From Candidatus Pacearchaeota archaeon (GTDB lineage Archaea > Nanobdellota > Nanobdellia > Pacearchaeales > UBA284), in contig JAVZYK010000001.1 in assembly GCA_038886195.1 (NCBI GenBank), positions 163,456 to 227,455 of the forward strand: a stretch of 64,000 nt of DNA, read 5' to 3'. Shown in pieces: positions 880 to 58,016 of this stretch (position 1 is the first letter of the stretch; every line of letters starts with the position of its first letter). The notes under the pieces are model-generated. The model did no database searches, was not told the DNA's origin, and saw nothing but the letters and a program-made list of their open reading frames with translations. The position numbers and the translations under genes were made by a program.

Positions 880-2835
880 ATGGAAAAAACGGGTGATAAA
901 ATAGTCATAGGTTTATTGATTATTGTGCTATTATCTCTTATAATATTTTTTTTAAGCCCAAAATTAATTATAGATGGTAAAGCGACAGCACCGCCGCCAC
1001 ACACATATCCTGAAAGAAGCGGCCATGTATGCGGTAATGGAAATTGTGAAAGTGGTGAAAATTACTATGATTGTCCAGAAGATTGTTGCGGCGAGGAAGA
1101 TATGCAAGTTAGAACACAAAATTCGTGTTGTGAAGGTTTAACTGCCGTTATAGATGTTTGTGAATTTGAATGGCCCAAAGAAGAAAAAGTGGAATTGCCT
1201 GTTTTGCCTCCAACACCTCCTTCTACAGAAGCTATAAAAGAATTCCCTCCAGGCACTGGGGCAGCTATAGCTCCTCCTCAACAAATTCCTGAAAAATATT
1301 GTTGGTTTTGTGTGAATTGTGGTGATGGTAAATGTAGTAAACATGAAACGGGCGAGAATTGTGCTATAGATTGTGCTGTTTGCGGTAACGGTATTTGTGA
1401 GTCTCCTAAAGAAACTTATGAAAATTGTCCAGAAGATTGTTGTGCACAAGCAGGTTATAGAGGAAAAGCTCCTGTAAAATGTTGTGAAGGTTTAAGAAAT
1501 ATTGATCCTTGCGATGTTCCTAATCCGCCTCAATATTGCACTATAACGATGAAACAAGAAGCCTGTATTAATTGTGGCAACGGCATTTGTGAAGAATATG
1601 AGAATGTTAAAAATTGTCCAGAAGATTGTTTATCTGTCGTAGCCAATTGCGAAGATTTGCCTAAATTAGAGATTTCTGCTTTAGATAGAAATGACAAAAT
1701 TGAATTTTGGTGGCGAGCTGACAGCATAATTCCTGAATCTAGAGTTTATATTAAAGAAGCTGATGAATGTATTAGTCAAGAATGCAATTTCGGTCAAGAA
1801 AATTTAATAATAAATAATTATCAACCGGGAACATCGCCTCAAGAATACTTTATTGATATGCCTCAAGATAATTTAAAATTTTATAAGTTTATTTCTAAAG
1901 TAAAAATTGGACCGAAAGAGGCCAATTGCAAGCCAGAATGTATGTTCATTGATAGTGACAGTGAAGGATTTTATGATCCTTGTTTTGAAGCACCAAAGTT
2001 GTTAAAATACAGCTCTTGCGCTAACAAAGAAGCTCATTGCTGCTTCAAAGGAACAAGAAGCGAAGGTTGGTATGATGTCGATTGTGATAAAGCTACAGAA
2101 GAAAATTTAATCACATATGATTCGACTTGTCATCTTGGAGCCATGCTTTGCGAACAGGAATCGGATTTAATGGTTAAATATACTCAAGAATTTAAAAAGC
2201 CAGAAGAAAGAGGAGCTTTAACTGCCAGAACTGGAGTTAATTGGTTACATTTTGTAAATTTTGGCGGAATAGTTTCAAGCGATCAGTTGCTTAAAATCGG
2301 AGGCTCGCCTTTTGATTATGTTGCTTATTGGGATCCAGAAAAACAAGAGCAGCACGGAACAGCAGAAGGCGATCCAAAAATGGTTTGCGAACAAAAGCCA
2401 GGACAAAAACAAGGCGTTTGTTATCTTGAGCGAGTCTTTACCGGCGTCTTTACAATGAAACGCGGCCATCCTTATTTCGTCTCACTTCGAGTTCCTCAAT
2501 TTGACATGACTTATGTCGGCAAAATTCCTGAACATGTGACGTTTGAGTTCAAGTATGGGCCGAGCAACTCAGGGCATGCTAATTATATTGTTCTTCCTTT
2601 AGACACGACAATAAAAACAGCAAAAGACTTATGTGAAGCTAAAGCAGACAACGGCCAAGATTTAATGAGCGATGATGATAACATTGGTTTCTGGGATGTT
2701 GAGCAACAAAAAATAATCATGCCTGCGGCAAGATGTTTTGAAATTAAAAATGTTCCTGGTTATAACTTTAATCTTGAAGCAGGCAAGATTTATTTAATAA
2801 CAGTTCCTGGAGACAGAACTTGGACACAAAAATAA
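880..2835 (+). CDS. Secreted or signal-anchored cysteine-rich repeat protein
   Basis: N-terminal hydrophobic anchor. At least four repeats of the pattern C-[GIN]-N-C-G-[ND]-G-x-C-E-x(4-8)-NCPEDC, for example CGNGNCESGENYYDCPEDCCG and CINCGNGICEEYENVKNCPEDC, followed by a Cys-rich C-terminal half of about 380 aa. The repeats resemble Myxococcus-type CxxCGDG...EECD repeats (DUF4215-like). Confidence 0.6.
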   Translation: MEKTGDKIVIGLLIIVLLSLIIFFLSPKLIIDGKATAPPPHTYPERSGHVCGNGNCESGENYYDCPEDCCGEEDMQVRTQNSCCEGLTAVIDVCEFEWPKEEKVELPVLPPTPPSTEAIKEFPPGTGAAIAPPQQIPEKYCWFCVNCGDGKCSKHETGENCAIDCAVCGNGICESPKETYENCPEDCCAQAGYRGKAPVKCCEGLRNIDPCDVPNPPQYCTITMKQEACINCGNGICEEYENVKNCPEDCLSVVANCEDLPKLEISALDRNDKIEFWWRADSIIPESRVYIKEADECISQECNFGQENLIINNYQPGTSPQEYFIDMPQDNLKFYKFISKVKIGPKEANCKPECMFIDSDSEGFYDPCFEAPKLLKYSSCANKEAHCCFKGTRSEGWYDVDCDKATEENLITYDSTCHLGAMLCEQESDLMVKYTQEFKKPEERGALTARTGVNWLHFVNFGGIVSSDQLLKIGGSPFDYVAYWDPEKQEQHGTAEGDPKMVCEQKPGQKQGVCYLERVFTGVFTMKRGHPYFVSLRVPQFDMTYVGKIPEHVTFEFKYGPSNSGHANYIVLPLDTTIKTAKDLCEAKADNGQDLMSDDDNIGFWDVEQQKIIMPAARCFEIKNVPGYNFNLEAGKIYLITVPGDRTWTQK

Positions 2836-2893
2836 TTGTAACTTAACAATAGTAAAACAAAAGATTTATAAAGTTCTTTGAATTGTTTTACAA

Positions 2894-3847
2894 ATGAAAA
2901 TTGTCAAACCTTTGATTACGGCAGGATTAATAGGATTAATTTCAGAAGTTGGCGCTCAAACAATAGGACAGAGAGTTTGGGATGCACACAATGGAGTAAG
3001 TTCTAATGGAACAATTGTCAATTGCTGGGTTAATAATGGAAGTTCTGGAATTCAAAAAGATACTGTTGATATCTATGGTAATTGGTGGGTACCAGCAGGC
3101 AATTTTAATCCACCGCCAGTTGCAGGTGATACAATAAAATCAGTTGATACTCTTGTTTATGGCGGAATAATTTATACAGGAAGGATGAGATGTCTTTATA
3201 CTGGAAGTAATACTAATATTCCAACTGGCTTTTTAGATGATCCTAACAAAAACGTTGTTGCTTTGAGTGTTGGAGCAAATAAAGTCAAAAACAGAAGTTT
3301 AAGGCCGCAATACAAAATGAATGCAAAAGGATGGCTTCAAAAAAATCCTAATCAGAAGATTCAGTTTATTAATTATTTTAGAAGGGCTTTAGGACAAGAC
3401 AGTTTGGCTATTGACACTACAGACATTCATAATCAGCTTTATTTCAATCTTGAAAAACAAGATTCAATTTGGCGCCAAGGAGATGTTTTTATAACAATGA
3501 TTTATCAGATCAAAGGCGACACAATGTGGTATCAATATTTCAGTCAAGTTATTGATACGACAAAATATGGCAGGGCATCTATAGTTGATTCTTTAAGATA
3601 TACTGCTGATTCAATGATCATCGGCATAGTTGAAGAAAAGTTAGAAAATAAAGTCAAAGAAGGCTTAATTATTAAACCAAATCCTGCAAGGAATTATCTT
3701 ATTTCAACTAAAGAAGCCATTTTATATGATGCTTTGGGAAGAAAAATTAAGAAAATAGATAAAGGTAAAAACAATCTTGATTTGAATTCTGGAGTTTATT
3801 TTGTTAAGAAAGATGAGGATATTGAAAAGTTAGTGATTTACAAGTGA
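2894..3847 (+). CDS. Secreted protein with a T9SS-type (Por secretion) C-terminal sorting-domain-like tail
   Basis: Signal peptide MKIVKPLITAGLIGLISEVGAQ. The C-terminal ~70 aa, KPNPARNYLIS...ILYDALGRKIKKID...LNSGVYFVKK, fits the NPA...YD..GR.V......L..GvYfv pattern of Por_Secre_tail/TIGR04183 domains. Confidence 0.5.
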   Translation: MKIVKPLITAGLIGLISEVGAQTIGQRVWDAHNGVSSNGTIVNCWVNNGSSGIQKDTVDIYGNWWVPAGNFNPPPVAGDTIKSVDTLVYGGIIYTGRMRCLYTGSNTNIPTGFLDDPNKNVVALSVGANKVKNRSLRPQYKMNAKGWLQKNPNQKIQFINYFRRALGQDSLAIDTTDIHNQLYFNLEKQDSIWRQGDVFITMIYQIKGDTMWYQYFSQVIDTTKYGRASIVDSLRYTADSMIIGIVEEKLENKVKEGLIIKPNPARNYLISTKEAILYDALGRKIKKIDKGKNNLDLNSGVYFVKKDEDIEKLVIYK

Positions 3848-4605: not shown

Positions 4606-4761
4606 ATGGTAGAATATCAATGTGAAGCTTGTGGTTATAGATTTTATAGAGAAAGGTTGCCTTTTAGATGTCCTTATTGTGGTAAAGAATCAAGCATAAG
4701 ACCTTCTCCTAGTGCAGAAGAAATTATGAACGAAATCGAAAAAGAAGAAGCAACTAAATAG
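4606..4761 (+). CDS. rpoP: Small zinc-ribbon protein, probably RNA polymerase subunit P (RpoP/Rpb12 family)
   Basis: 51-aa ORF not in the track: MVEYQCEACGYRFYRERLPFRCPYCGKESSIRPSP.... The Y-x-C-x2-C-x2-F...RCPYCG...RP layout is typical of archaeal RpoP. It sits between rpl15e and disA. Confidence 0.45.
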   Translation: MVEYQCEACGYRFYRERLPFRCPYCGKESSIRPSPSAEEIMNEIEKEEATK

Positions 4762-4882: not shown

Positions 4883-5992
4883 ATGTTAAATAGTGATAAA
4901 GAAAATTTTAAAGAAGAGCTCGAATTAAAAGCAATTGAGGATGAAAAAAAAGAACGAGAATTTGAAGAACTTTTAGATGTAATAAGGCTATTGACTCCTG
5001 GAACTCCTCTTCGTGCCGCTATTGATGATATTGCTCGTGCTGGAATGGGCGCTTTAATTGTTTTAGGCGATTCTCCAGAAGTTTTGAAAATTAAAAATGG
5101 TGGAATAAAAATTGATTGTAAATTTACGCCACAACAACTAGTAGAGCTCTGTAAGATGGACGGAGCAATTATTTTATCAGATGATTTAAAAAAAATAGTT
5201 TATTGCAATACTCAACTTGTTCCAGATCCCAACATAGAAACTAATGAAACGGGTACAAGACACAGGGCGGCTGAACGTACAGCAAAACAAACTTCTAGAC
5301 CAGTAATTGCAATATCAGAAAGAAGAAAAACTACAAGCCTTTATTATAAAAATATAAAATATCAATTAAGAAATTCTGATGAAATTTTAAACAAAGCAAC
5401 AGAAACTCTTAGAATGTTAGAAAAACATAAAGAAATTTTGAATGAATTGCTTATCAATCTCAATATTATGGAACTTACAAATTTCGTAAGTCTTAATGAA
5501 GTAGTTTTATGTATTCAAAGAATGGAAATTATTTCTAGAATTACAAGAACAATAAAAAAATATATTATTGAATTGGGAGCCGAGGGCAATTTAGTTAAAA
5601 TTTTGCTCAAGGAAATTATAAAGGGTTTGGAAAAAGAGAAAGATTTGTTATTGAAGGATTATAGTAGAAACTGGGGCTTTACAAAAACCGCATTGCCATC
5701 TTTAACTCTTGATGAGTTAATTGAGCCAGAAAATATTATAAGAATTTTACTTTATTCTAGTCCAACAGATCCTGTAAAACCAAAAGGTTACCGATTATTG
5801 TCTAAGACTTCACTAAATGAAGAAACTATAGAGATTCTTGTAAATAATTTCGGAACTTTACAAAATTTAATGGAAACTTTGAGCCTGCAATCAAATAAAC
5901 TGGTAGAAATTATTGGAGAAAAAGATACAAAAAAATTAGTAAGAGATTTTGAAAATTTGAAGGAGCAAGCTCTAGTTGGAAAGAAAATTTAA
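4883..5992 (+). CDS. disA: DisA-type diadenylate cyclase (DAC domain plus C-terminal HhH)
   Basis: LTPGTPLRAAIDDIARAGMGALIVLGDSPEV...KMDGAIILSDD...ETGTRHRAAERTAKQT reproduces the DisA_N DGA and RHR catalytic motifs. The C-terminus, LVNNFGTLQNLMETLSLQSNKLVEIIGEKDTKKL, is HhH-like. Confidence 0.75.
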   Translation: MLNSDKENFKEELELKAIEDEKKEREFEELLDVIRLLTPGTPLRAAIDDIARAGMGALIVLGDSPEVLKIKNGGIKIDCKFTPQQLVELCKMDGAIILSDDLKKIVYCNTQLVPDPNIETNETGTRHRAAERTAKQTSRPVIAISERRKTTSLYYKNIKYQLRNSDEILNKATETLRMLEKHKEILNELLINLNIMELTNFVSLNEVVLCIQRMEIISRITRTIKKYIIELGAEGNLVKILLKEIIKGLEKEKDLLLKDYSRNWGFTKTALPSLTLDELIEPENIIRILLYSSPTDPVKPKGYRLLSKTSLNEETIEILVNNFGTLQNLMETLSLQSNKLVEIIGEKDTKKLVRDFENLKEQALVGKKI

Positions 5993-6007
5993 ATTAAATG
6001 TAAAAAA

Positions 6008-7054
6008 ATGATAAGTCAAAAACAAATAGAACAAGTAAGAACATTTCTGGAAAAAACGCAAAATCCTTTGTTTTTTTTTGATAATGATGTAGATGGCTTG
6101 GCTTCTTTTCTTTTGCTTCGTAGATTTTGTGATAAAGGAAAAGGCATTGCTATTAAAAGCTTTCCTGATTTGAATACTTCTTATTCTCGTAAAATCGAAG
6201 AATTTAAGCCAGATTATATTTTTGTTCTAGACAAACCATTGATTGAGAAAGGTTTTAGAGAAGCAGCACAACAATTCAATATTCCTATAATATGGATAGA
6301 TCATCATCCAATTCCAGATTATGCAAATGAAAATAACATTTACTATTTCAATCCTTTGACAGAAGGAAAAATTAATGAGCCAGTATCTTATATATGTTAT
6401 AAAATAACGGGAAGAAAAGAAGATGAATGGATAGCAATGATAGGCTGTCTTTCTGACTGGTTTATTCCTGATTTTTCTGAAAATTTCATTAAAGAATATC
6501 CTGAACTATTTTCCAATATAAAAAGTCCTGCAAAGGCTCTGTATGAAACAGAACTTGGAAAAATAATTAAAATTCTTAGTTTTGCATTAAAAGATAGAAC
6601 AAGCAATGTAGTTAAGATGTTAAAAAATTTGCTTACAATTAAAAATCCCAGAGAATTATTAGATGCAAGTTCTCCTAAGATGGTTTCTATATATAAACGA
6701 TTTAATCAAATAAACCGAAGATATGAAAAAATATTAAACAAAGCTAAAGAACTTGCCAAAAATCATAAAAGATTAATTTTCTTCCAATATGGAGGAGATT
6801 TAAGTCTTAGTTCAGAAATTTCTAATGAATTAATATATCTTTTTCCAGATAGAGTAGTTGTTGTTGCATACATTAAAGGAACTAGAGCCAATGTATCAGT
6901 AAGAGGAGTATTTATGAATGTTAGAGAACTAGTGGCAAAGGCTTTAGAAGGAATCGAATCGACAAGTGGCGGCCATGAACATGCCTGTGGAGCTACTTTG
7001 CAAGTTGAAGACTTGCCAAAATTTAGAGACAATTTAATAAAACTTTTAAAATGA
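6008..7054 (+). CDS. DHH/DHHA1 family phosphoesterase (NrnA/DhhP-like; candidate c-di-AMP/pApA phosphodiesterase)
   Basis: Motif I FFFDNDVDGLAS, motif III WIDHHP, and DHHA1 GGHEHACGA. At 348 aa it matches the NrnA/DhhP size class rather than RecJ. It starts 16 nt after the disA stop. Confidence 0.75.
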   Translation: MISQKQIEQVRTFLEKTQNPLFFFDNDVDGLASFLLLRRFCDKGKGIAIKSFPDLNTSYSRKIEEFKPDYIFVLDKPLIEKGFREAAQQFNIPIIWIDHHPIPDYANENNIYYFNPLTEGKINEPVSYICYKITGRKEDEWIAMIGCLSDWFIPDFSENFIKEYPELFSNIKSPAKALYETELGKIIKILSFALKDRTSNVVKMLKNLLTIKNPRELLDASSPKMVSIYKRFNQINRRYEKILNKAKELAKNHKRLIFFQYGGDLSLSSEISNELIYLFPDRVVVVAYIKGTRANVSVRGVFMNVRELVAKALEGIESTSGGHEHACGATLQVEDLPKFRDNLIKLLK

Positions 7055-7959
7055 AAAAATCAATTAATGATAAAGAGTTAATGAAGAAAATAGGAATTGA
7101 TAAAAGATTGTTGTCATTATTTAAAAAAAGAAGGGAGGAAGCTTTGAAAGAAGCTAAAGAAATAAAAAAACATTTTTTTGAAAAGAAAATAAGAGTTCTT
7201 GGAATAAATGGCTCGAGGCGCATTAAAAATGATTGCCCAGCAGAAGATTCAACAACAGAATGGCTTCTTGATAAATGTTTAGATGAGGCAAAAAAACTGG
7301 GAGCTGAGGTAAAGAAAATTAATTTAATGGAATATAATATCGAACCTTGTAAAGGCTGCTATAGCACAACAAACACTCAATGTCATTACAAATGCACTTG
7401 TTACCCTGAAGGCGAATATGGAGATGATATGACTAATAAATTATACGATATTGTTTCGTGGGCTGATGTTATTGTTTTTGCAACACCAGTTCATAATTTT
7501 AAAATCTCTTCTCATATGTCTTTATTTCTTGACAGATTAATAAGTATGGACGGAAGTCTCGCTCCTGCAGACATATATAATGTTAAAAATAAGAAAATTA
7601 ATATAAAACATACTAAATTTATAGAGTTAACTGGAAATGAAAAATTTGGATCTGGATTTTTAAGAAGATTAACAGGAAAAATAGCTGGAATTATAGTTTC
7701 TGGCCATGAGGTTGGCGCAAGTATGGTGATATCTTCTCTTTTTATGACTTTAAATCATTTTGGAATGGTTTTCCCACCATTTAGTAATATGTATGCAATT
7801 AATACTATATGTGAAGGAACGTATAAAGATAAAGAAAAATTAAGAAACGAGTGTTATGAAAAAGAGGCTAGACGATTGGCAAAGAATTTAATTACTGCTG
7901 CAAAAGTATTAAAAAGAAATAATGATTATTGGTGGGTTTATGATGGAAAAAGCAATTAA
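7051..7959 (+). CDS. Flavodoxin-like fold NAD(P)H-dependent FMN reductase / iron-sulfur flavoprotein-like
   Basis: RVLGINGSRR...ADVIVFATPVHNFKISSHMSLFLDRL is the FMN_red/flavodoxin-like signature. An extra Cys cluster, CKGC...C..C.C, is as in Isf proteins. Its start overlaps the stop of the upstream DHH gene by 4 nt. Confidence 0.6.
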   Translation: MKKSINDKELMKKIGIDKRLLSLFKKRREEALKEAKEIKKHFFEKKIRVLGINGSRRIKNDCPAEDSTTEWLLDKCLDEAKKLGAEVKKINLMEYNIEPCKGCYSTTNTQCHYKCTCYPEGEYGDDMTNKLYDIVSWADVIVFATPVHNFKISSHMSLFLDRLISMDGSLAPADIYNVKNKKINIKHTKFIELTGNEKFGSGFLRRLTGKIAGIIVSGHEVGASMVISSLFMTLNHFGMVFPPFSNMYAINTICEGTYKDKEKLRNECYEKEARRLAKNLITAAKVLKRNNDYWWVYDGKSN

Positions 7960-8893
7960 AATGGAATTCAAAGAGATTAAGCACATTAAAATTGTAAATG
8001 GAATAAAAGTTTCTGAACTTGTGAATAGAATGAAAAATGTTGGATTTGGTGCTAAAAATTTAGCAGAAGCTTCAAATATTCTTGAAACAGCAATCAGAGA
8101 TAAAGAATGTAAATTATTTTTTGGAATGGCCGGCGCTCTTGTGCCTGGAGGAATGAGAGAGATAGTGATTGATATGTTAAGAAAAGAATTTGTTGATGTT
8201 TTTGTTACAACGGGGGCAAATTTAACTCACGATTTAATTGAAGCTCTTGGATTTAAACATTATCAAGGATCAGCCAATGTTGATGATGTTGAATTAAATA
8301 AAAAAGGCATTGACAGAATATATAACGTTTTTATGAAAAATCAAGTTTATGAACATCTAGAAAAATTTTTTACTAAAAATTTTGATGAATTATCGAAAAC
8401 AACTTCACCAAGAGAATTTTTATGGAAACTTGGAGAGTTAGTTCATAAAAAAAGCATTTTAAAAATTTGTTACGAAAGAAAAATTCCCATCTTTTGTCCA
8501 GCATTAACAGATTCTGGAATTGGTTTAATGGTTTGGGGCCAACTTATTAGAAAAAGGAAAATAGAGTTGGATTTTTTTAAAGATCTGGCCGAAATTATAG
8601 AAATATCTTGGAGTGCTAAGAAGACTGCTGTTTTGTATATTGGTGGAGGAGTTCCTAAAAATTACATTCAACAAGCTTTACAGTTTACAAAACCAGCAAT
8701 TTATGGAGTTCAAATCACTACAGACAGAGCAGAACCTGGCGGTTCTAGTGGAGCTTCACTTAAAGAAGGAATTTCTTGGGGAAAGATGTCTAGAAAGGCA
8801 AAATTTGTAGATGTTTTTTGTGATGCTACTATAGCTTTACCTTTGCTTTACGCTTCGTTAATAGATAAATTAAAAATAAAAAAAGAGGGTTAG
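7922..8893 (+). CDS. dys: Deoxyhypusine synthase
   Basis: FFGMAGALVPGGMREIVIDMLRKEFVDVFVTTGANLTHDLIEAL and YIGGGVPKNY...GGSSGASLKEGISWGKM correspond to the DHS NAD/spermidine-binding motifs. The true start may be the internal Met near 7940-7943 (MMEKAIK). Confidence 0.8.
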   Translation: MIIGGFMMEKAIKMEFKEIKHIKIVNGIKVSELVNRMKNVGFGAKNLAEASNILETAIRDKECKLFFGMAGALVPGGMREIVIDMLRKEFVDVFVTTGANLTHDLIEALGFKHYQGSANVDDVELNKKGIDRIYNVFMKNQVYEHLEKFFTKNFDELSKTTSPREFLWKLGELVHKKSILKICYERKIPIFCPALTDSGIGLMVWGQLIRKRKIELDFFKDLAEIIEISWSAKKTAVLYIGGGVPKNYIQQALQFTKPAIYGVQITTDRAEPGGSSGASLKEGISWGKMSRKAKFVDVFCDATIALPLLYASLIDKLKIKKEG

Positions 8894-10816
8894 ATGAAAA
8901 AAAATATTCTTAAATTATTTATAACAATTTTAATAATTTCATTTACTTTTAATTTTGTTTCAGGACAAGAGCTTAATCAAGAATTTAATAGTTCTATAAA
9001 AAAAATAGATTTATTGATGAATATTTCCAGCACCATCTATAGTGAAGCTGAAAAAATTATAGTTAATTTAACTTTATTTCCCAGAGAAAATGAAAATTGT
9101 ATTGTTAATTTAAAAACAAAACCTGTAGCTGATATAGGAGATGAATTCATAATTTTCAACTTTAGTGAAAAAGGAAAATTAAACTATGTGGTTGAGTCTA
9201 AAATTAGTAGTGAGTTTTTATTTAAGAAAATTAATAATGTTGTTTTACCTTTTAACGTTCCTTCAGAACTAGAAATTTATACGAGAAATTCTGAATATAT
9301 TGTTATAGATTCGTATATTAAAAATAAAGCTTATCAGTTAGTGGCCCAAGATAAAGATGCTTTTGAAACTTTATACAACATTGCAGAATATGTAAGAAGA
9401 AATATGAACTATTCATTAGAATATCAAGAATTAAGAAATGCTTCATGGATTATGCAAGAAAAAAAAGGCGTTTGTAGTCATTATACAATTCTTTTTGTGT
9501 CAATGGCTAGGGCTCTGGGAATTCCTGCTAGATTCGTTTCCGGAGTTGCTTATAGCAATAAAGACAAAGCAATTAGAGAACATGCTTGGGCTGAAGTGTG
9601 GCTTAATGGAGAATGGATTCCCTTTGATGTAACGTTTGGTCAGTATGGTTGGCTAGATGCAAGTCATATTGTATTGAAAAGAAGTCTCGACGCAGGTTCA
9701 TCTTCTGTAGAATATAAATATGTGGGAGAAATAATTATAGAAAATTTAACAATAGATACAAAAATAATTAATCAAGAAGGTTTAGTAAATTTACCAATTG
9801 AGATAAAACTTTCTCCTTATGTAGATAAAGCTGGTTTTAATTCTTATGTTCCTATAGAAGTAACTTTGAAAAATCCTTACAATTATTATGTTTCTGTTCC
9901 TATTTATGTTTCTATTGCTACTGGTGTTTTTGGAGAGAGTGAAAAAATATTTTTACTAAAACCCAACTCAGAAACAAAAAGTTTTTTTATAATGAAAGTT
10001 CCTGATAGTTCTGAACTTAAAGAATGTGGTAAAGAATGTTTGGCAAGTTTTGAAGTTAAAGATAAATTTGGTAACTCCGCTATTACAAAAATTTTAATTG
10101 GAATAAATAAGCCCCGAATATCATTGCAAGAGGCTGAAAATATAATTAGACCGTATAGAAAGGAAATGATAGATTTTTATTGTAAGAGCAATAAAGAATT
10201 CTATTACGATTATGAAAACATCTCCATAGTATGTCAAGCAAAAAGTCCTAGAAATGCAAATGTAAGTATATGTAATCAAAATATTTGTAAGAATATTACA
10301 CTTAATGCTAATGAATTGCAGAATATTGAATTAGAAGTGCCAGCAAATATCGTTAGAAATAAATCCATTGATTCGATAGAGATGACTTGTATGATTTTAT
10401 GCATAATAACGAGAGAGCTAAAAGACATTATTGCTGTTTCTTGTATCGATATGAAGCTTCTCACTATGCCTGAAGCAAAAATCGCAACATTACAAAACAC
10501 AGAAGCAAATTATGGTAGTAAGGGTGATTTAAGTGCAATTATAGAATCAAACAACAATATAAATGCCGAACTAAAGATTGTAACGGAAAAATATATTGAA
10601 ACTAAAAAGATTTTTCTCAGAAAAGGAACAAATATAATTCCTCTAGAAATAAAAACTTGGAAATTAGACGTAGGTAAAAATTCAATATCTTTAACTTTAA
10701 AATATAAAGATATGAATGATAAAAATTATGAAGATAAAAAAGATTTTACATTTATCGTTAAAGACACGAATATTTTTACAAAGATTATTATTTGTTTAAT
10801 TCATTTATTTGACTAA
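8894..10816 (+). CDS. Secreted transglutaminase-like domain protein
   Basis: Signal peptide. A transglutaminase core with a Cys-His-Asp triad: KKGVCSHYTILFVSMARALGIPARFV, HAWAEVWL, PFDVTFG. It is followed by long beta-rich, Cys-containing C-terminal domains. Confidence 0.7.
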   Translation: MKKNILKLFITILIISFTFNFVSGQELNQEFNSSIKKIDLLMNISSTIYSEAEKIIVNLTLFPRENENCIVNLKTKPVADIGDEFIIFNFSEKGKLNYVVESKISSEFLFKKINNVVLPFNVPSELEIYTRNSEYIVIDSYIKNKAYQLVAQDKDAFETLYNIAEYVRRNMNYSLEYQELRNASWIMQEKKGVCSHYTILFVSMARALGIPARFVSGVAYSNKDKAIREHAWAEVWLNGEWIPFDVTFGQYGWLDASHIVLKRSLDAGSSSVEYKYVGEIIIENLTIDTKIINQEGLVNLPIEIKLSPYVDKAGFNSYVPIEVTLKNPYNYYVSVPIYVSIATGVFGESEKIFLLKPNSETKSFFIMKVPDSSELKECGKECLASFEVKDKFGNSAITKILIGINKPRISLQEAENIIRPYRKEMIDFYCKSNKEFYYDYENISIVCQAKSPRNANVSICNQNICKNITLNANELQNIELEVPANIVRNKSIDSIEMTCMILCIITRELKDIIAVSCIDMKLLTMPEAKIATLQNTEANYGSKGDLSAIIESNNNINAELKIVTEKYIETKKIFLRKGTNIIPLEIKTWKLDVGKNSISLTLKYKDMNDKNYEDKKDFTFIVKDTNIFTKIIICLIHLFD

Positions 10817-14207: not shown

Positions 14208-14867
14208 ATGTTAGAAAAGGAGGCTATTGAAAAGGGTATTGATATTGAAGCTTTAAAGGAAGAACAAAGAAAACTTGCTAAACTCGTATCTTGTAAAGAT
14301 GCATTTGATTTTAATAACGCTACAAGATTTGCAGGCATAGATTTAGAAACATTAAAAACAAAAGAAATTCTAGCCGCTATTGCGGTAGTTGATGAAAATA
14401 TGGAAATAGTTGAAGAAAAATATGCAATTAGACCAATCAAATTTCCTTATATTCCTGGCTTTAGAGCTTATAGAGAATTGCCTTGTATTTTGGCCGCTTA
14501 TGAGAAGCTGGAAGAACAACCAGATGTTTTTTTTATAGAAGCTCAAGGAATATCTCATCCAAGAGGTTTAGGATTGGCAAGTCATTTAGGAATTAGTATA
14601 AATAGACCAGTTATAGGAATAACGAATCATATACTTATTGGTGAAGAGAGAGGCGATGATGTTATATTGAATGGAAAAGTTATAGCAAAGAAACTCATTA
14701 CAAAAGAAGGTTCGAAACCATTTTATGTTTCTGTAGGCCATATGATTTCTCTTTCTTCAGCCGTAGAGCTTGTCAAAAAATGTGTTAGAGAGCCGCATAA
14801 ACTTCCAGAGCCTCTTGTAATGGCAAGAAAAATGGCTTCAAAAATAAGAAAAGAGATAGAAAGATAA
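14208..14867 (+). CDS. nfi: Endonuclease V
   Basis: IAVVDE...FPYIPGFRAYRELP...FIEAQGISHPRGLGLASHLG...GITNHIL matches the catalytic core of the endonuclease V family. Confidence 0.8.
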   Translation: MLEKEAIEKGIDIEALKEEQRKLAKLVSCKDAFDFNNATRFAGIDLETLKTKEILAAIAVVDENMEIVEEKYAIRPIKFPYIPGFRAYRELPCILAAYEKLEEQPDVFFIEAQGISHPRGLGLASHLGISINRPVIGITNHILIGEERGDDVILNGKVIAKKLITKEGSKPFYVSVGHMISLSSAVELVKKCVREPHKLPEPLVMARKMASKIRKEIER

Positions 14868-14916
14868 TAAAAAATAAAGTCCTTTATCTTTTACTTTTTT
14901 AATTCCGCTAATTAAT

Positions 14917-15141
14917 TTATAACCCCACAACGCCTATTTTTGTAGCGATTATTTTTAATTTGTCTATGAGCTCCTTAGCAGTGTCTTCTTCTATTTTTTT
15001 GCCCTCTCCTGGTTTTATTTCTTCCTCTGTTTTTATCTCAATAAAATTAATTAAGTCTCTAATGTCGTTTTCAATTTCCATGATTCTTTGTTTTATGTTG
15101 CCATCTACTGGTTTATATTTCTTTTTAGTTGAAAGCCTCAT
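14917..15141 (-). CDS. Hypothetical small charged protein
   Basis: 74-aa K/E-rich ORF. It is more protein-like than the overlapping plus-strand ORF at 14960..15154. Confidence 0.3.
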   Translation of the reverse strand: MRLSTKKKYKPVDGNIKQRIMEIENDIRDLINFIEIKTEEEIKPGEGKKIEEDTAKELIDKLKIIATKIGVVGL

Positions 15142-15205
15142 TTTATTTAATTAATACCTCCTTTTTAATATGATGATTAAACAATAATCTTTTTTAAATT
15201 TTTTC

Positions 15206-16624
15206 TCAGTTATTATATCCATTTAATTTTATATTTATTTCTAAATGGCGCCACAATTCTGAAGGAGTTAATGTAGATAGATGTTCTTTTGCTTCTTTTA
15301 TTCCAAATTTTTTTACATCTCTAACTTCTTTTACTTTCGGCGTCATTACTAAAGCGACTGCAAATCTTGCAATTCCACTAATTAAAAATACAATTAATAT
15401 TGAAGAAAGTCCAAACAAAGTTAAATGGGTTGAAGAAATGAAACCTCCCAGTGTAGCGCCTATAAAAACTCCGATTCCAGTCAAGAGATTTGAATAAGCA
15501 ACACATAATGCCATTCTTTGACGAGTTACTGCATCATATATGAAGTTGCTAGAAGCGAGGTTAAAGCCAGCCCAAACCATTCCAGAAAAAGCTTCTATTA
15601 AAATAAGGTATGGAATTAAAGAATTTTTATTTATAAATATAGAAACAAACCACAATAAAGGCACTAAAGGAATTAGAAAAGAAGTTATTTTTGTTGCCTT
15701 TATATTACCATAGCGATCAACAAATTTTCCCCATAAAGGCATAAAAAGCAAGGAAGTTAAAGAACTTGCCAATGTAACTAGAATCCATTGAAAATAACTA
15801 AAGCCGAGTTCTTTTAACATATAAACTGCGAAAAAAGGAGAAGCAATTGCTGTAGCAAGCTGCATCAAAGCTACAAGAACTGTAAATTTGCCAAAATTGC
15901 TTTTAGGAATATAACGAATAAATTGCCAAAAACTAAAATAGTAGCCTTTTTCATAGCTAATTTTTGGTTCATATTTTTTTGAGAGAATTAGCGTTGAAAT
16001 TAATCGTGCTATAAAAGCTATAGTGAATAAAATTACAAATCCTATAAATATTTTTGTTTTTGCAAAATAATCAAGAATAAAACTGCCGGCCAACATAGAA
16101 ACGAGCGCTACAAAACCAACAATTCGGTTTCTGTTACCAAAATATTTTCCGGAATTTTCTGTCACTATGTCTTTCATCCAGGAGTTCCATGCTGGCACGA
16201 GCATTGCTCCAAATAAAGTAAGTAAAGTATAGATTATTATAAGGAGAGTTGGCGTTATAGTTGAGTTAATGTTAAAAATAAAATATAATGCTCCAATGCC
16301 GATTACAAAAAGCCACATTATTGCTTGAAGCAATGCTCCTAAAACAACAATTTTTTTTCTAGAAGTCTTTTCCATAAGTTTTGGTGTAAACATTTGAGAA
16401 AAATTTCCTAGCAAAGAAGGTAAAGAAGTTAAGAAACCTATGTGGGCATTTGTAGCACCTAGTTTTAAAGCAAAAGGAGTTATATATCTCATGCCAAGTC
16501 CTTCACTCACCGAATATGCGCAGCCTTCACGAATGCTTAATATCTTTGTTTTTTCTATTAATCTACGTTCTTTTTTAATTTTCCTTTCTTTTTTCATTTT
16601 TTGTTTGCATTTAATAAAAAACAA
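15206..16624 (-). CDS. MFS transporter
   Basis: 472 aa with about 12 hydrophobic helices arranged as two six-helix halves, typical of the major facilitator superfamily. Confidence 0.7.
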   Translation of the reverse strand: MFFIKCKQKMKKERKIKKERRLIEKTKILSIREGCAYSVSEGLGMRYITPFALKLGATNAHIGFLTSLPSLLGNFSQMFTPKLMEKTSRKKIVVLGALLQAIMWLFVIGIGALYFIFNINSTITPTLLIIIYTLLTLFGAMLVPAWNSWMKDIVTENSGKYFGNRNRIVGFVALVSMLAGSFILDYFAKTKIFIGFVILFTIAFIARLISTLILSKKYEPKISYEKGYYFSFWQFIRYIPKSNFGKFTVLVALMQLATAIASPFFAVYMLKELGFSYFQWILVTLASSLTSLLFMPLWGKFVDRYGNIKATKITSFLIPLVPLLWFVSIFINKNSLIPYLILIEAFSGMVWAGFNLASSNFIYDAVTRQRMALCVAYSNLLTGIGVFIGATLGGFISSTHLTLFGLSSILIVFLISGIARFAVALVMTPKVKEVRDVKKFGIKEAKEHLSTLTPSELWRHLEINIKLNGYNN

Positions 16625-16660
16625 ATTTATAAACTTTTTTAATTTTTAATATTTAATGAA

Positions 16661-17689
16661 ATGAGTAAAAAAGAGAAAAAAGAAAAAATGACTAAACAAA
16701 TAACCAAAACACACAATTCTGAAATAGCCAAGATATTTTTTGAAATGGCTGATATTTTAGAAATGCAAAACGTTCAATGGAAACCGCAAGCTTATAGAAG
16801 AGCTGCTAAAGCAATTGATTCTTTAAGAGAAGATGTTGAAGAAATTTATAGAAATTATGGTTTAAAGGGTCTTAAAGAAATTCCAGGAGTTGGTGAAAAT
16901 CTTGCTAAGAAAATCGTTGAATTTATTAAAACTAATAAAATTAAGGCTTATGAAAAATTGAAAGCAAGCATTCCAGCCCATGTTGCTGAACTTTCACAAA
17001 TTCCAGGTATCGGGCCGAAGAAAATAAAAAAACTTTACCAAATTCTACATATAAAAACCTTGAAGGATTTAGAAAAAGCATTGAAACAACACAAGATTGC
17101 TAAATTGCCCGGCTTTGGTGAAAAATCTGAAAAGGCCATTATCGAAAGCTTAAAAATTAAAAAAGAAAAGCGCAGACCTTTGGAAGAAGTCTTGCCGATA
17201 GCAAATTCAATAGTTAAAAAATTAAAGAAATCAGGGGTTGTTGATAAAATTGACGTCGCAGGATCGATTAGAAGAAAAAAAGAAACCGTTAGAGATATTG
17301 ATATTTTAGTTACATCAAAGAATCCTAAAAAAGTTATGGATATTTTTACGACATTGCCCGAAGTATCAAAAGTGTTAGCAAAGGGGCCAACTAAAAGCGC
17401 GGTTATTTTGAAACAAGGAATTCAGGCAGACGTTCGTGTTGTTCCGGAGGAAAGTTATGGGGCAGCATTAATGTATTTTACTGGTTCAAAAGAGCACAAT
17501 ATTAAGATGAGAGAAATTGCTATGAAAAAAGGTTACAAGTTGAGCGAATATGGGTTATTTGATAGAAAAACTGGCAAACTTCTAGCTTCAAAAACAGAAG
17601 AAGAAATTTATAATAAACTCGGAATGAATTATATCGAGCCCCATTTGCGAGAGAATAAAGGCGAAATAGAAGATGCAATGAAAAAATAA
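16661..17689 (+). CDS. polX: DNA polymerase X family protein (Pol beta-like core; PHP domain absent)
   Basis: Tandem HhH motifs IPGVGENLAKKI and IPGIGPKKIKKL. A nucleotidyltransferase motif VAGSIRRKKETVRDIDILV. YFTGSKEHNIKMR...EYGLF. It ends at IEPHLRENKGEIE, the point where the PHP domain of full-length PolX would begin. Confidence 0.75.
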   Translation: MSKKEKKEKMTKQITKTHNSEIAKIFFEMADILEMQNVQWKPQAYRRAAKAIDSLREDVEEIYRNYGLKGLKEIPGVGENLAKKIVEFIKTNKIKAYEKLKASIPAHVAELSQIPGIGPKKIKKLYQILHIKTLKDLEKALKQHKIAKLPGFGEKSEKAIIESLKIKKEKRRPLEEVLPIANSIVKKLKKSGVVDKIDVAGSIRRKKETVRDIDILVTSKNPKKVMDIFTTLPEVSKVLAKGPTKSAVILKQGIQADVRVVPEESYGAALMYFTGSKEHNIKMREIAMKKGYKLSEYGLFDRKTGKLLASKTEEEIYNKLGMNYIEPHLRENKGEIEDAMKK

Positions 17690-17692
17690 AAA

Positions 17693-17798
17693 TGCGCCAG
17701 CCGGGATTCGAACCCGGGTAACAACCTCTCTCTATTGGGGATAATAAGGGGTATCCCCTTATTTGGGAGGGTTGTGTCTTGCCACTGGACTACTGGCG
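17693..17798 (-). tRNA. tRNA-Gly(CCC) carrying an anticodon-loop intron of about 35 nt
   Basis: Minus-strand read: GCGCCAG-TA-GTCCAGTGGCAAGAC-A-CAACC-CTCCCA[intron AATAAGGGG...AGAGAG]A-GGTTG-TTAC-CCGGGTTCGAATCCCGG-CTGGCGC-A. The acceptor and T arms pair perfectly, with discriminator A73. The intron lies at the canonical 37/38 site. Confidence 0.75.
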
Positions 17799-17868
17799 CG
17801 CAAATTACTATATATTCTTTAATAAACAAATCTTTATAAATTTTGGTCGTAGTTTAATAAAGTAAAAA

Positions 17869-53342: not shown

Positions 53343-54803
<1,461 letters not shown>

Positions 54804-55044: not shown

Positions 55045-57960
55045 AATGAGACGTTGTATGAGGAATAGTTTAGCTTCCCTAAAAGCTGCTAGACGGATGA
55101 CTTGGCTTAGACTGCGATGAAGGACGTGGCAAGCTGCGATAAGTCCGAGGGAGCTGCACGCAAGCCTTGATCTCGGAATCTCCGAATGCGAAACGTTATT
55201 CCTGAAGAAGGAATATCTCTCTTTTGAGAGAGCTGACGCCGGGAATTGAAACATCTTAGTACCGGCAGGAAAAGAAAACAAAAGTGATTCCCTGAGTAGC
55301 AGCGAGCGAAAAGGGAATAAGGCAAACCGAATTTTCTATCGAAAGATAGAAAAGATGTGGAGTCGGGCAGGAGTACAGCTAAACTGTCGAAGTCGAAGTT
55401 TCCTGGAAAGGAACGCCATAGAGAGTGATAGCCTCGTAGACTAAGACAGCATGCTGATTTCCTGCTTTCAAGAGTAGCGTATCCCGGTTAGGATGCGTGA
55501 AGATGGCTCTACTAAGAGCTAACTTTAAATATGAGTCTAAGTCCGATAGCGCACTAGTACCGCGAGGGAATGTTGAAAAGCACCTCTAGCGAGGAGTGAA
55601 AAGACCTGAAATCTAGCAGCTATAGTTAGTTACGGCTCTCTACGGAGAGTTGTAACGTACGTTTTGGAAAACGGGCCAGGGAGTTAAGGTAAGTGGCGAG
55701 GTTAAGTTGCTTCTGCAACGTAGCCGTAGCGAAAGCGAAGCCGCGCATCGAAAGAGAGGCGGCGTGTTCTAACAAGCATTAGTCACTTGCCTTAGACCTG
55801 AAACCAAGCGATCTACTCGTGAGCAGGATGAAGCTTCCCTAACGGGGAGTGGAGGTCCGAACAAGTGCTACGGGCAAGTGCTTTGATGACTCACGAGTAG
55901 GGGTGAAAAGCCTATCTAGCTTGGCGATGGCTGGTTCCTGCTGAAATATACTTTCGTATAGTCTCTTGTTAGTTGGCCAACGCGGTAGAGTACGGATTGG
56001 GCATGCAGGCATCTTTTGATGTCGGTGTCCTTTTCAACTCCGAACGTGTTGGCAACGCAACAAGGGAAACAGGTGTGCGGGGTAAGCTTGTACACCGAGA
56101 CCGGAACAACGGAGACTAAAGTTAAGGTCCCAAAATGCTGACTAAGTGCATCGAAAGGAGTCCTGATTCTGAGACAGTGGGGAGGTAGGCTTAGAGGCAG
56201 CCATCCTTTAAAGAAAGCGTAACAGCTCACCCATCGAGAATCAGGGCACTGAAAATTGACGGGGCTAAGTCAGCTACCGAGACTTTAGTGTTTTTCCTTC
56301 GGGAAAAACAGGTAAGCAGGCGTGCTGTTCGGGTAGAAGCTTCTTCGTAAGAAGGAGTGGACCGAATAGCAATGAGAATCCTGGCGTTAGTAGGATCTTA
56401 CTTGTGTGAGAACCACAAGGGTCGTAAGAGCTAGGGTTCCTCGACAATGTCGATCAGTCGAGGGTTAGCCGATCCTAACTGCTACCTTAACTGAGTAGCG
56501 GGAAAGGGAAGCCTGTTAATATTCAGGCGCTGCTTGGCAATGTTGAAATTCTCGGTGACGTTTTGGGATAGGCAGAGTGTCTCCGAAAGGACATCTATCG
56601 CGAGAAAGTTGTGGATCGTAATGAAGAGAAGCAACTGAATCGCGATAGCGAAAGTCTGTTGATTCCTAGAACCCGTGAAAAGCCGAGAATGGAGTTGTCA
56701 AGCAATCGTACCTAGAACTTGCACTTGTGCTCTTGCTGAGAAGGTAAAGACCTGCAAGCTTAAAGCTAGTAAGGGAACTCGGCAAATTGGCCTCGTATCT
56801 TCGGTAGAAGAGGTGCCTATGTTTGTGCCTTTGATTCGTAAGAATTGGAGGTGCAAGCGTAGGTTGCAATAACAAGGACCGCCCGACTGTTTATCAAAAA
56901 CGTAGCCAAGTGCTAAGCCGAAAGGCTTCGTACACTTGGTGAGACCTGCCCAGTCGCGGTGTTTGAAAGCCCTTTCCAAGGGGCCTAAGACCCGTGAAAC
57001 GGCGGGCCTAACTGTGAGGCTCTTAAGGTAGCGTAATACCTTGTCGTCTGAATGGCGACTTGCATGAATGGTTTAACGAGGTGGTCACTGTCCCTACTAG
57101 CGAGCTTCTGAACTCACCCTCCTGGTGCAAAGGCCAGGGACATCTAGTGGGAAGCGAAGACCTTGTAGACCTTTACTGCAACTTGTCGTTGAATCTTGTA
57201 GTAAAATACATAGCGTAGCTAGGAGAGATGAAGCGAGGCTTCGGCGTAGCGGATCGCCAATGTAACACTAGCTATTTTTTTACAAGATTCTAACTCGAAA
57301 GAGGACAGCGGCAGGCGGGCAGTTTGGCTGGGGCGGCACCCTCCCGAAAAGATATCGGGAGGGCCCAAAGGTGAGCTCAACATAGTTGGAAACTATGTGT
57401 AGAGCGCAGGGGCAAAAGCTCGCCTGACTGTGGCTCGCATAGAGAGAGCTGCAGATACGAAAGTAGGGCCCAGCGAACTCTTGAGGCCTTTTAGTGGGGC
57501 CCAAGAATGACAGAAAAGGTACCTCAAGGATAACAGGCTCGTCGCGCCCGATAGTCCACATTGACGGCGCGGTTTGGTACATCGCCGTCGGCTCTTCCTA
57601 TCCTGGCTGTGCATAAGCAGCCAAGGGTGCCGGGGTTCACGCATTAAAAGGGATCGTTAGCTGGGTTAAGAACGTCGCGAGACAGTTTGTTTGATATCTA
57701 CTAGATGTGTTGTTGCCTGAATGGAACGAAGCTCTAGTACGAGAGGAACGAGCTTCGGGAGCCTCTGGTTTAGCGGTTGTCCTTACAGGGCAGGCCGCGC
57801 AGCTACGCTCTGTGCTGATAAGAGCTGAACGCATCTAAGCTCGAAGCAGCCCGTAAAAATAGGCAACTAAGGCCGTTCTAGAAGAGAACGTTGATAGAGT
57901 TGGGGTGTACGCAAGAAGCTTCGGCGACTTGCTCAGCCCGCAACTACTAAAAGCCTCAAA
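55045..57960 (+). rRNA. rrl: 23S ribosomal RNA (ends approximate, ±20 nt)
   Basis: The 5' region, ...GGATGACTTGGCTTAGACTGCGATGAAGGACGTGGCAAGCTGCGATAAGTC, matches the conserved 23S start. GTP-ase centre and sarcin-ricin-like blocks are seen (AGTACGAGAGGAAC at about 57735). No 5S follows. Confidence 0.85.
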
Positions 57961-58016
57961 AAACTAAACTATTCCTTGTACAACGTCGATATTAAAAAGA
58001 AACAATGAAAAAGAAT

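Follow-up and report, generated by a model that had tools for sequence, protein, structure and literature searches.

Signalling by cyclic di-AMP (c-di-AMP) has been studied in archaea only for the cyclase DacZ of Euryarchaeota, in agreement with an earlier note on the DNA described here, which named DacZ as the cyclase that archaea are generally described as using, and the enzymes that degrade the nucleotide were unknown until recently (PMC10249747). Stand-alone DHH/DHHA1 enzymes are known hydrolases of pApA and c-di-AMP (PMC10249747), and PMC12699388 cites a characterised archaeal phosphodiesterase (PDE) of the DHH type, PyaPDE, with the architecture TrkA_N-DHH-DHHA1. For diadenylate cyclases (DACs) in candidate archaeal phyla, the review PMC10249747 cites Galperin 2023 ('All DACs in a row', J Bacteriol). 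Here we describe a locus at positions 4883-7054 of a 64,000-nt stretch from a Candidatus Pacearchaeota genome (contig JAVZYK010000001.1, positions 163,456 to 227,455; hereafter the window), in which the gene for a DisA-type diadenylate cyclase directly precedes that for a DHH/DHHA1 phosphoesterase, which we call the mini-RecJ. The earlier note, made from the letters alone, had read these two genes as a bacterial make-and-break pair for c-di-AMP, horizontally acquired and wired into translation-factor modification.

The window has a G+C content of ~30% and contains an archaeal rRNA operon (SSU 53343-54803, LSU 55067-57970), together with genes for the archaeal ribosomal proteins L15e and L10e and for deoxyhypusine synthase (DS). 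The rRNA operon and the ribosomal proteins mark the host as archaeal; it belongs to the Pacearchaeota, a DPANN lineage. Our literature search found no paper joining Pacearchaeota with a diadenylate cyclase. The presence of DisA in these genomes is already known at the level of annotation, since NCBI names these Pacearchaeota proteins DisA; the new points are the existence of a large uncharacterised mini-RecJ family and its conserved coupling to DisA in Nanoarchaeota.

An orthodox DisA followed by a RecJ-type DHH/DHHA1 protein

The two genes and the domains of their products are placed as follows.

4883..5992, + strand: disA, full-length DNA-integrity-scanning diadenylate cyclase, 369 aa (NF010009, PDB 3c1y, model)
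5015..5353, + strand: DAC catalytic domain, residues 45-157, with the DGA and RHR motifs (PF02457)
5366..5761, + strand: DisA-linker helical domain, residues 162-293 (PF10635, 108.3 bits)
5780..5989, + strand: C-terminal helical domain at the position of the DisA helix-hairpin-helix (HhH) domain, hairpin degenerate (3c1y alignment, model)
5993..6007, + strand: DisA-DHH spacer of 15 nt, too short for a separate promoter unless this reaches into the disA coding sequence
6008..7054, + strand: lineage-specific DHH/DHHA1 phosphoesterase with a RecJ-type core, 348 aa, the mini-RecJ (Pfam, homologues, model)
6008..6472, + strand: DHH domain, ~residues 1-155, with DNDVDG, D75, DHH 98-100 and D150 (aligns to 7bhi residues 28-173)
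6770..7051, + strand: DHHA1 domain, ~residues 255-348, with S297-x-R299 and GGH 321-323 (PF02272, residues 267-347)

The assignment of the open reading frame (ORF) at 4883-5992 to DisA rests on several concordant searches. Its product scored far over the Pfam cutoffs for both the DAC domain (PF02457, 92.4 bits), the profile check proposed in the earlier note, and the DisA linker (PF10635, 108.3 bits), and the NCBIfam DisA equivalog NF010009 covered residues 25-367 with 366.5 bits against a cutoff of 201. The corresponding models for CdaA, CdaS, CdaM and DacZ reached just 16-33 bits; the DacZ model, which would denote the cyclase of the known archaeal systems, gave 15.7 bits against a cutoff of 430. 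The complete catalytic signature that the note had described is present, in the form of KMDGAIILSDD (DGA) and ETGTRHRAAER (RHR), and DGA and TGTRH(R/K)AAER are kept across 33 archaeal DisA orthologues. DisA of T. maritima (3c1y) aligned with residues 28-361 (E 2e-66), with an identity of 43% overall and 57% in the DAC domain, which is as close as distant Pacearchaeota orthologues. An AlphaFold model made with an alignment input of 28 archaeal sequences (pLDDT 89.5) superposed on full-length DisA from M. tuberculosis, M. smegmatis and T. maritima with TM 0.85-0.91, at 2-3 Å over ~350 columns. Homology and structure prediction together show an orthodox three-domain DisA whose diadenylate-cyclase site is predicted to be intact.

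Like bacterial DisA (T. maritima TM0200, 3c1y; M. tuberculosis, 9y4s), the window protein combines a DAC domain, a helical linker and a C-terminal helical domain, and the catalytic DGA and RHR motifs are common to both. It differs in carrying an extra charged N-terminal helix of ~27 aa, in being encoded by a DPANN archaeon and in the state of its HhH domain, where the claim of the earlier note held in part. The C-terminal region has the expected position and fold and is helical in the model (pLDDT 82-92), but the match to HHH_2 (E 0.02, 15.5 bits) lies under the Pfam cutoff of 27, and the G-h-G hairpin, EGIGEK in Thermotoga, has degenerated to EIIGEK in the window and is unconserved among archaeal orthologues. 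The usual neighbour of disA in bacteria is radA/sms, whereas here it is the RecJ-like DHH gene.

Both ORFs lie on the + strand where they had been reported, although the gap after the disA stop codon is 15 nt rather than 16. The DHH/DHHA1 motifs noted in the 348-aa product of the second ORF are real: DNDVDG, D75, DHH 98-100, D150, S297-x-R299 and GGH 321-323 proved invariant in 81 of 81 mini-RecJ orthologues. Pfam supported the proposed domains unequally, with DHHA1 passing its cutoff (33.8 bits against 25.9) and DHH remaining just under its own (26.2 bits against 28.1). The metal-binding and (S/G)GGH motifs are features of the DHH superfamily as a whole and not specific to the NrnA/DhhP family, with which the earlier note had grouped the protein. 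No NrnA-type model matched in the NCBIfam scan, which returned weak recJ-type matches (TIGR00644, 49.7 bits; RecJ_archaeal, 29.3 bits against a cutoff of 360; RecJ_Meth, 22.6 bits against a cutoff of 550). A search of the PDB with the single sequence gave no meaningful match. With a family profile built from 24 mini-RecJ members, the PDB search retrieved archaeal RecJ-type chains only, namely M. thermautotrophicus RecJ-Cdc45 (7bhi, E 1.6e-10), P. furiosus RecJ (PfuRecJ) and MjaRecJ2, the Borrelia DhhP chain coming in at E 0.59.

Structure prediction led to the same grouping. The AlphaFold model of the mini-RecJ (pLDDT 93.6) consists of a DHH domain, a helical region, a long linker helix of 25 residues (226-250) and the DHHA1 domain that this helix precedes. 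In a Foldseek search with the model, RecJ-Cdc45, MjaRecJ2, PfuRecJ and GAN ranked at the top (E 1e-18 to 1e-15), and NrnA, Pde2 and PggH followed lower (E 1e-9 to 1e-7). A second structure comparison gave high values for the RecJ-type proteins (PF0399 DHH, 27.9; RecJ-Cdc45, 27.1; T. thermophilus RecJ core, 26.9; M. thermolithotrophicus PAP phosphatase, 26.4; MjaRecJ2, 26.4) and lower ones for the PDE-type proteins (TM1595 PDE, 17.6; S. aureus Pde2/NrnA, 17.3; Borrelia DhhP, 16.9; M. smegmatis NrnA, 12.7; GdpP, 12.1), a gap that may partly stem from open and closed domain arrangements.

Because sequence profiles and both structure methods concur, we regard the mini-RecJ as a bare RecJ-type core. 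By homology and structure prediction, its fold is shown to comprise a DHH domain, a long linker helix and a DHHA1 domain, with no CID or OB domains, and the protein is predicted to be a metal-dependent, two-metal DHH/DHHA1 phosphoesterase with intact catalytic and phosphate-binding residues. We found 2,339 homologues at E <= 1e-3, and all named ones come from DPANN archaea; by homology the family is confined to Pace-, Woese- and Nanoarchaeota, with two exceptions among the genome loci described below. The likeness to NrnA and DhhP thus extends to size (~320-350 aa) and motifs but not to family membership, and the grouping test that the earlier note had set for its bacterial DhhP placed the protein with the archaeal RecJ type instead. 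For this reason, being a RecJ-type archaeal protein and not a bacterial DhhP/NrnA, the mini-RecJ is only a candidate for the enzyme that breaks c-di-AMP, and we would caution against annotating any ~340-aa DHH/DHHA1 protein beside a cyclase as 'DhhP'.

Comparison with named enzymes bears out this placement. The stand-alone PDEs (Borrelia DhhP, 9r7o; S. aureus Pde2/NrnA, 8iu7; TM1595, 5o1u; Rv2837c/MsNrnA, 4ls9) are of similar size (~320-350 aa), and they and the catalytic domain of GdpP (5xsi) have the DHH plus DHHA1 layout, the metal-binding motifs and the GGH motif in common with the mini-RecJ; a further likeness is that its gene lies beside that of a diadenylate cyclase. The mini-RecJ does not have the architecture of GdpP, in which a membrane anchor, a PAS domain and a degenerate GGDEF domain come before DHH/DHHA1. 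Nor is it of the PyaPDE type, which has an N-terminal TrkA_N/RCK_N fusion, as Pfam found no TrkA_N match and the DHH domain begins at residue 25 or earlier. The make-and-break logic itself would match the archaeal pairing of a c-di-AMP cyclase with a DHH/DHHA1 hydrolase that is cited in PMC12699388.

The most similar DHH plus DHHA1 domains are those of the archaeal RecJ/GAN/Cdc45 type (7bhi, from M. thermautotrophicus; MjaRecJ2, 7ykv; P. furiosus RecJ, 5x4h; GAN, 5ght, from T. kodakarensis; PF0399, 5yh1). Relative to these proteins of ~430-470 aa, the mini-RecJ is ~100 aa shorter and is without the CID-type insertion between motif IV and DHHA1, an interval in which it has ~85-100 residues fewer than 7bhi. 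It also differs from bacterial RecJ in having no OB domains, and the NCBIfam RecJ models gave it 23-50 bits against cutoffs of 360-550. An exonuclease-derived PAP phosphatase of Methanothermococcus thermolithotrophicus (MtPAPP, 8a8k) has negligible identity with it in a structural alignment (16%); the MtPAPP gene stands in a sulfate-assimilation cluster, that of the mini-RecJ beside DisA, DS and ProRS.

We ran the mini-RecJ family hidden Markov model (HMM) over six-frame ORFs of the window and of all loci fetched from related genomes (see below), which yielded one weak extra DHH match. This ORF, in locus L044, encodes a canonical archaeal RecJ (RecJ_archaeal, 321 bits; GAN_nuclease, 206 bits; PfuRecJ, E 2e-51; GAN, E 1e-49). 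Its 445-aa family is widespread in Pacearchaeota, several of its >2,200 members being named as such, and the top matches show identities of 68-75%; one member (P0347) shares a single 282,829-bp contig with a DisA-DHH pair. As the same lineage has a canonical 445-aa RecJ, the 348-aa protein is an additional, lineage-specific paralogue; homology and structure prediction show it to be a paralogue rather than the orthologue of the replisome RecJ/GAN of ~445 aa. An identity with archaeal GAN or RecJ-Cdc45 was therefore ruled out. In L044, a Nanoarchaeota contig, the canonical RecJ/GAN gene (5125-6462) lies two genes downstream of the DisA and mini-RecJ pair, the sole such case in 80 loci. A defence system, whether CBASS-like or a DAC-based anti-phage system, was also ruled out, PADLOC returning zero matches for DisA, the DHH protein, the flavoprotein gene that follows and a small zinc-ribbon ORF upstream.

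Conservation of the pair

To place the two genes in a wider context, we fetched 80 genome loci around mini-RecJ members with 45-69% identity to the window protein. All come from Pace-, Woese- or Nanoarchaeota except one labelled Aenigmarchaeum and one probably misbinned contig. Neighbouring DisA genes were found by tblastn and ORF clustering within flanks of ~10 kb, so that absence here means local absence.

In 32 of the 80 loci DisA was at most 4 genes away from DHH, always upstream and on the same strand (position -1 in 28, -2 in 3 and -3 in 1). The core observation of the earlier note, a real DisA-type cyclase in an archaeon directly before an intact DHH/DHHA1 phosphoesterase, is thus repeated by adjacency in 28 of 80 loci. 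Spacers were at most 40 nt in 21 of 29 cases, several of them between -4 and +2 nt, and whenever DisA was found within 10 kb of DHH it was nearly always directly upstream, co-directional and tight, despite differing flanks. The reverse look-up, starting from 9 DisA of the Nanoarchaeota type, found DHH directly downstream in 5 and two genes off in 1. As the gene upstream of DisA varies (L15e, DS, a decarboxylase dependent on pyridoxal phosphate (PLP), ackA or nreA), the DisA-DHH pair behaves as a stable unit. Pairwise distances among DisA and among DHH proteins were correlated (r = 0.82; Mantel, 0 of 2000 permutations), and hence the two were inherited together. These data show DisA and DHH to be an old, vertically co-inherited pair.

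Some of the loci call for separate comment. The archaeal repair gene nreA (Nre_N/Nre_C, ~405 aa) stands upstream of DisA/DHH in divergent orientation, both in 13 of the 80 loci and in L083, L085, L086, L092 and L093. The last of these carries, after DisA and at the usual site of DHH, a VapB-like/ParE toxin-antitoxin pair (5346-5812) and an 823-aa ORF, which looks like an insertion splitting the DisA-DHH pair. Locus L034 (CAVSQA010000028.1, 282 kb), deposited as 'uncultured Gemmatimonadales bacterium', has the archaeal order DisA-DHH-DS-transglutaminase-L10e-PEP synthase, and its label is probably the result of misbinning or mislabelling.

Function of the pair and the weight of synteny

The interpretation we prefer, tentatively and with somewhat less than even confidence, is of the PDE type: DisA makes c-di-AMP, and the mini-RecJ is a candidate hydrolase of pApA and c-di-AMP or of short nucleotides. 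DisA would produce the messenger, and the mini-RecJ, hydrolysing very short nucleotides with a 5'-phosphate in a Mn2+-dependent manner, would remove pApA and possibly c-di-AMP too. It would probably also clear nanoRNA or pAp generally, which would explain why it is intact at sites from which DisA has gone, by relocation or by loss. The invariant S-x-R and GGH residues of DHHA1 are compatible with such small-nucleotide substrates. A make-and-break pair, as the earlier note proposed, is in this form a reasonable hypothesis, but the terms 'DhhP', 'horizontally acquired module' and 'wiring into hypusination' find no support.

Several observations weigh against this interpretation. By both sequence and structure the mini-RecJ falls outside every characterised family of c-di-AMP/pApA PDEs. 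PyapApase, an archaeal DHH/DHHA1 protein with a long helix, cuts neither c-di-AMP, pApA nor nanoRNA (PMC8268124), and MtPAPP, a RecJ-like core of mini-RecJ size, is described in the literature as a specific PAP phosphatase, a 3'-phosphatase on pAp; given these two activities, the fold does not predict the substrate. On the receptor side, the window contained no ydaO-type c-di-AMP riboswitch at the gathering threshold, and Pfam found no RCK_C, CBS or PII-like c-di-AMP receptors among the 18 window ORFs scanned. Comparative data point the same way: 36 of the 70 loci having at least 3 kb upstream lack DisA within ~10 kb of DHH, the catalytic residues of the mini-RecJ stay the same whether or not DisA adjoins it, and DS and ProRS are each found no more than 4 genes from DHH in 41 of 80 loci, more often than DisA is. 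Locus L042 of assembly MNVX (Pacearchaeota CG1_02_32_21) has DHH but no DisA, and a 336-aa DisA is found on another contig (L088), which we resolved as a relocation of DisA. Another DisA, on a further archaeal metagenome contig (L084, 3995-8126), is flanked by the gene for the small subunit of RFC and an AAA+ gene, after which comes one for an OB-fold protein resembling single-stranded-DNA-binding protein (SSB); DHH is absent there, and none of the DisA loci of the Iainarchaeota type had a DHH neighbour.

Part of this evidence would be accounted for if the two genes were joined by synteny only. The DHH gene would then be a housekeeping nanoRNase or pAp phosphatase unrelated to c-di-AMP, beside which DisA was once inserted, and their adjacency would persist by descent in compact, slowly rearranging genomes. 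Indeed, DHH belongs to a conserved housekeeping block that reads TFIIE-alpha, rhomboid, SpoIIM, DUF378, DS, (decarboxylase), (DisA), DHH, and is followed by a convergent ProRS and an HtrA-like protease. Since DS and ProRS occur near DHH as often as DisA or more often, and do so with or without DisA, the DisA-DHH link could be inherited synteny. In the complete chromosome CP070794.1, ackA overlaps DHH by 4 nt, where locus L085 has ackA-DisA-DHH, and PyapApase is an example of an archaeal DHH enzyme with a long helix that is specific for pAp (PMC8268124). Mapped on the neighbour-joining tree of DHH, the DisA state (present or absent) requires at least 16 changes by the Fitch count while DHH itself is unchanged. 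DisA has repeatedly left, or moved from, the DHH site, with DHH retained intact.

The same Fitch count can also be read against a link by synteny alone. It was lower than in any of 500 shuffles (mean 23.6, minimum 17), so the DisA state is phylogenetically structured and not random. The tight, co-directional placement of DisA directly upstream, kept though flanks differ, argues likewise. Moreover, an organism that makes c-di-AMP normally requires an enzyme to degrade it; the profile scan of six-frame ORFs found no other DHH candidate in the window, and none of the 18 window ORFs scanned with Pfam received a PDE-type domain. Taking both sides together, we consider synteny as the whole explanation to be somewhat unlikely.

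Other sites of DisA bear on a further alternative, in which the pair serves DNA surveillance: DisA would mainly scan DNA integrity, the mini-RecJ would be a 5'-phosphate-dependent exonuclease of single-stranded DNA or RNA acting on DNA ends or stalled forks, and turnover of c-di-AMP would occur elsewhere or not at all. In L087, L088 and L089 (1-7011), from Pacearchaeota CG1_02_32_21 and relatives, the 336-aa DisA is divergent from RNase J, upstream of the proteasome/exosome superoperon, and ~3.5 kb from Mre11 (Metallophos) and Rad50 (SMC_N). These surroundings, the RFC and AAA+/SSB context above and the repair gene nreA divergently upstream in 13 loci would suit such a role. So would the partnering of DisA by RadA/Sms in bacteria, the retention of the full DisA architecture including its C-terminal domain, the long linker helix and S-x-R/GGH pocket, which are RecJ features, and the identity of the nearest profile and fold relatives (RecJ-Cdc45, MjaRecJ2, PfuRecJ, GAN, PF0399 and bacterial RecJ), which are nucleases. 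Yet the HhH hairpin, the element that binds branched DNA, is degenerate and unconserved in archaeal DisA. The mini-RecJ has neither CID, OB nor other DNA-handling domains and scores 29-50 bits against RecJ cutoffs of 360-550; the lineage already encodes a canonical RecJ/GAN; and MtPAPP, a RecJ-like core of the same size, is a mononucleotide phosphatase, so the fold does not imply a nuclease. We judge this nuclease role unlikely.

A bolder proposal combines elements of both functions. DisA acquired from bacteria and a stripped-down RecJ paralogue might form a checkpoint on the eukaryote-like archaeal replication and repair machinery, with DisA reporting the status of DNA or forks through c-di-AMP and the mini-RecJ serving as a new RecJ-derived class of PDE or as the nuclease arm. 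If this were true, the placement of DisA near RFC/SSB and Mre11-Rad50 genes in sister lineages would be a sign of the same coupling; we regard the proposal as speculative and unlikely. Under the PDE-type interpretation that we prefer, as under its nuclease alternative, the mini-RecJ is a testable candidate, either for a new structural class of c-di-AMP/pApA hydrolase or for a DisA-linked nuclease accompanying eukaryote-like replication.

Origin of DisA and the surrounding genes

A library-wide phmmer search with the window DisA returned just 270 cluster representatives at E <= 1e-30. From 111 full-length representatives and the locus sequences we built a neighbour-joining tree with BLOSUM distances and without support values, which suffices to recognise a coherent archaeal clade but not to name a bacterial donor. 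All sampled Nanoarchaeota DisA fell into one clade of 31 tips, whose named members are Pace-, Woese- and Nanoarchaeia. T. maritima DisA lay outside it, among mostly unlabelled sequences, and the branches adjoining the clade carry Candidatus Iainarchaeum and sequences labelled only 'archaeon'. Given the Nanoarchaeota clade and the adjoining Iainarchaeota, DisA is a DPANN-wide gene. A whole radiation within DPANN thus uses DisA instead of DacZ, most often coupled to an uncharacterised family of RecJ-core phosphoesterases with at least 2,300 members.

The 43% identity to Thermotoga DisA is compatible with an old interdomain transfer of DisA alone. The evidence does not fit the origin that the earlier note had suggested, a bacterial cassette of DisA and DhhP/NrnA transferred jointly and wired to deoxyhypusine synthesis. 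The identity to T. maritima DisA (57% in the DAC domain) and the adjacent, co-directional arrangement of the two genes are what could be said for it. Its DHH member, however, is an archaeal RecJ-like protein and not DhhP/NrnA, and occupies the same syntenic site in genomes without DisA; the archaeal DisA sequences form the single 31-tip clade beside Iainarchaeota and are not scattered; and of the genes to which the cassette was to be wired, that for the flavoprotein occurs in this genome alone, and DS accompanies DHH in loci with and without DisA. Nothing supports the transfer of a two-gene bacterial cassette, and we consider that scenario largely refuted and very improbable.

Two further genes of the same strand were part of that argument.

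7051..7959, + strand: FMN-reductase-like flavoprotein, genomic context only (FMN_red, 72.1 bits in Pfam)
7922..8893, + strand: deoxyhypusine synthase (DS), a syntenic neighbour and not part of the module (Pfam DS, 342 bits)

With DisA, DHH/DHHA1 and a transglutaminase-like protein they make up five + strand ORFs spanning 4883-10816, in the order DisA, DHH, flavoprotein, DS, transglutaminase, with gaps of +15, -4, -38 and 0 nt. The common strand and these short gaps make an operon plausible, and co-transcription of DisA and DHH is likewise plausible from the arrangement of the genes. AT-rich, TATA-like strings occur upstream of disA and are uninformative in a genome of 30% GC. The flavoprotein had no tblastn counterpart in the 80 related loci; its gene is a lineage-specific insertion into the DHH-DS interval. 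The idea of wiring into translation-factor modification falls with these observations, DS being a neighbour whether or not DisA is present and the flavoprotein occurring in this window only. We infer that DS, the transglutaminase and the flavoprotein adjoin the pair because gene order was inherited in a compact genome, and not through regulatory wiring.

The DS genes that flank DHH are of two kinds (L059, 8959-9960; L073, 7823-8875; and others), with ~60% and ~30% identity to the window DS and both full-length by PF01916. In some loci a PLP-dependent decarboxylase of the Orn/Arg type stands between DS and DisA/DHH, which suggests that DS and the decarboxylase are a polyamine-hypusine gene pair.

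Upstream of disA, the interval after L15e contains a 51-aa ORF (4606-4761, + strand) with two CxxC pairs, a zinc ribbon. By tblastn it has 32-47% identity to sequences in 10 related loci, mostly within the interval from L15e to DisA/DHH, and it is probably a real small gene. Farther upstream (880-3847, + strand) lie genes for two putative secreted proteins. One, of 651 aa, is Cys-rich and without a Pfam match; the other, of 317 aa, has a weak match to Por_Secre_tail, a sorting domain of the type IX secretion system (T9SS), at E 0.0017, which is odd for an archaeon. On the opposite strand, a tRNA match at 17693-17799 covers 107 nt against a model of 71 positions and is likely an intron-containing archaeal tRNA. 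Next to it, at 14208-17689, and thus ~7-10 kb downstream of DisA-DHH, are genes for endonuclease V and for a family-X (Pol beta-like) DNA polymerase with HhH.

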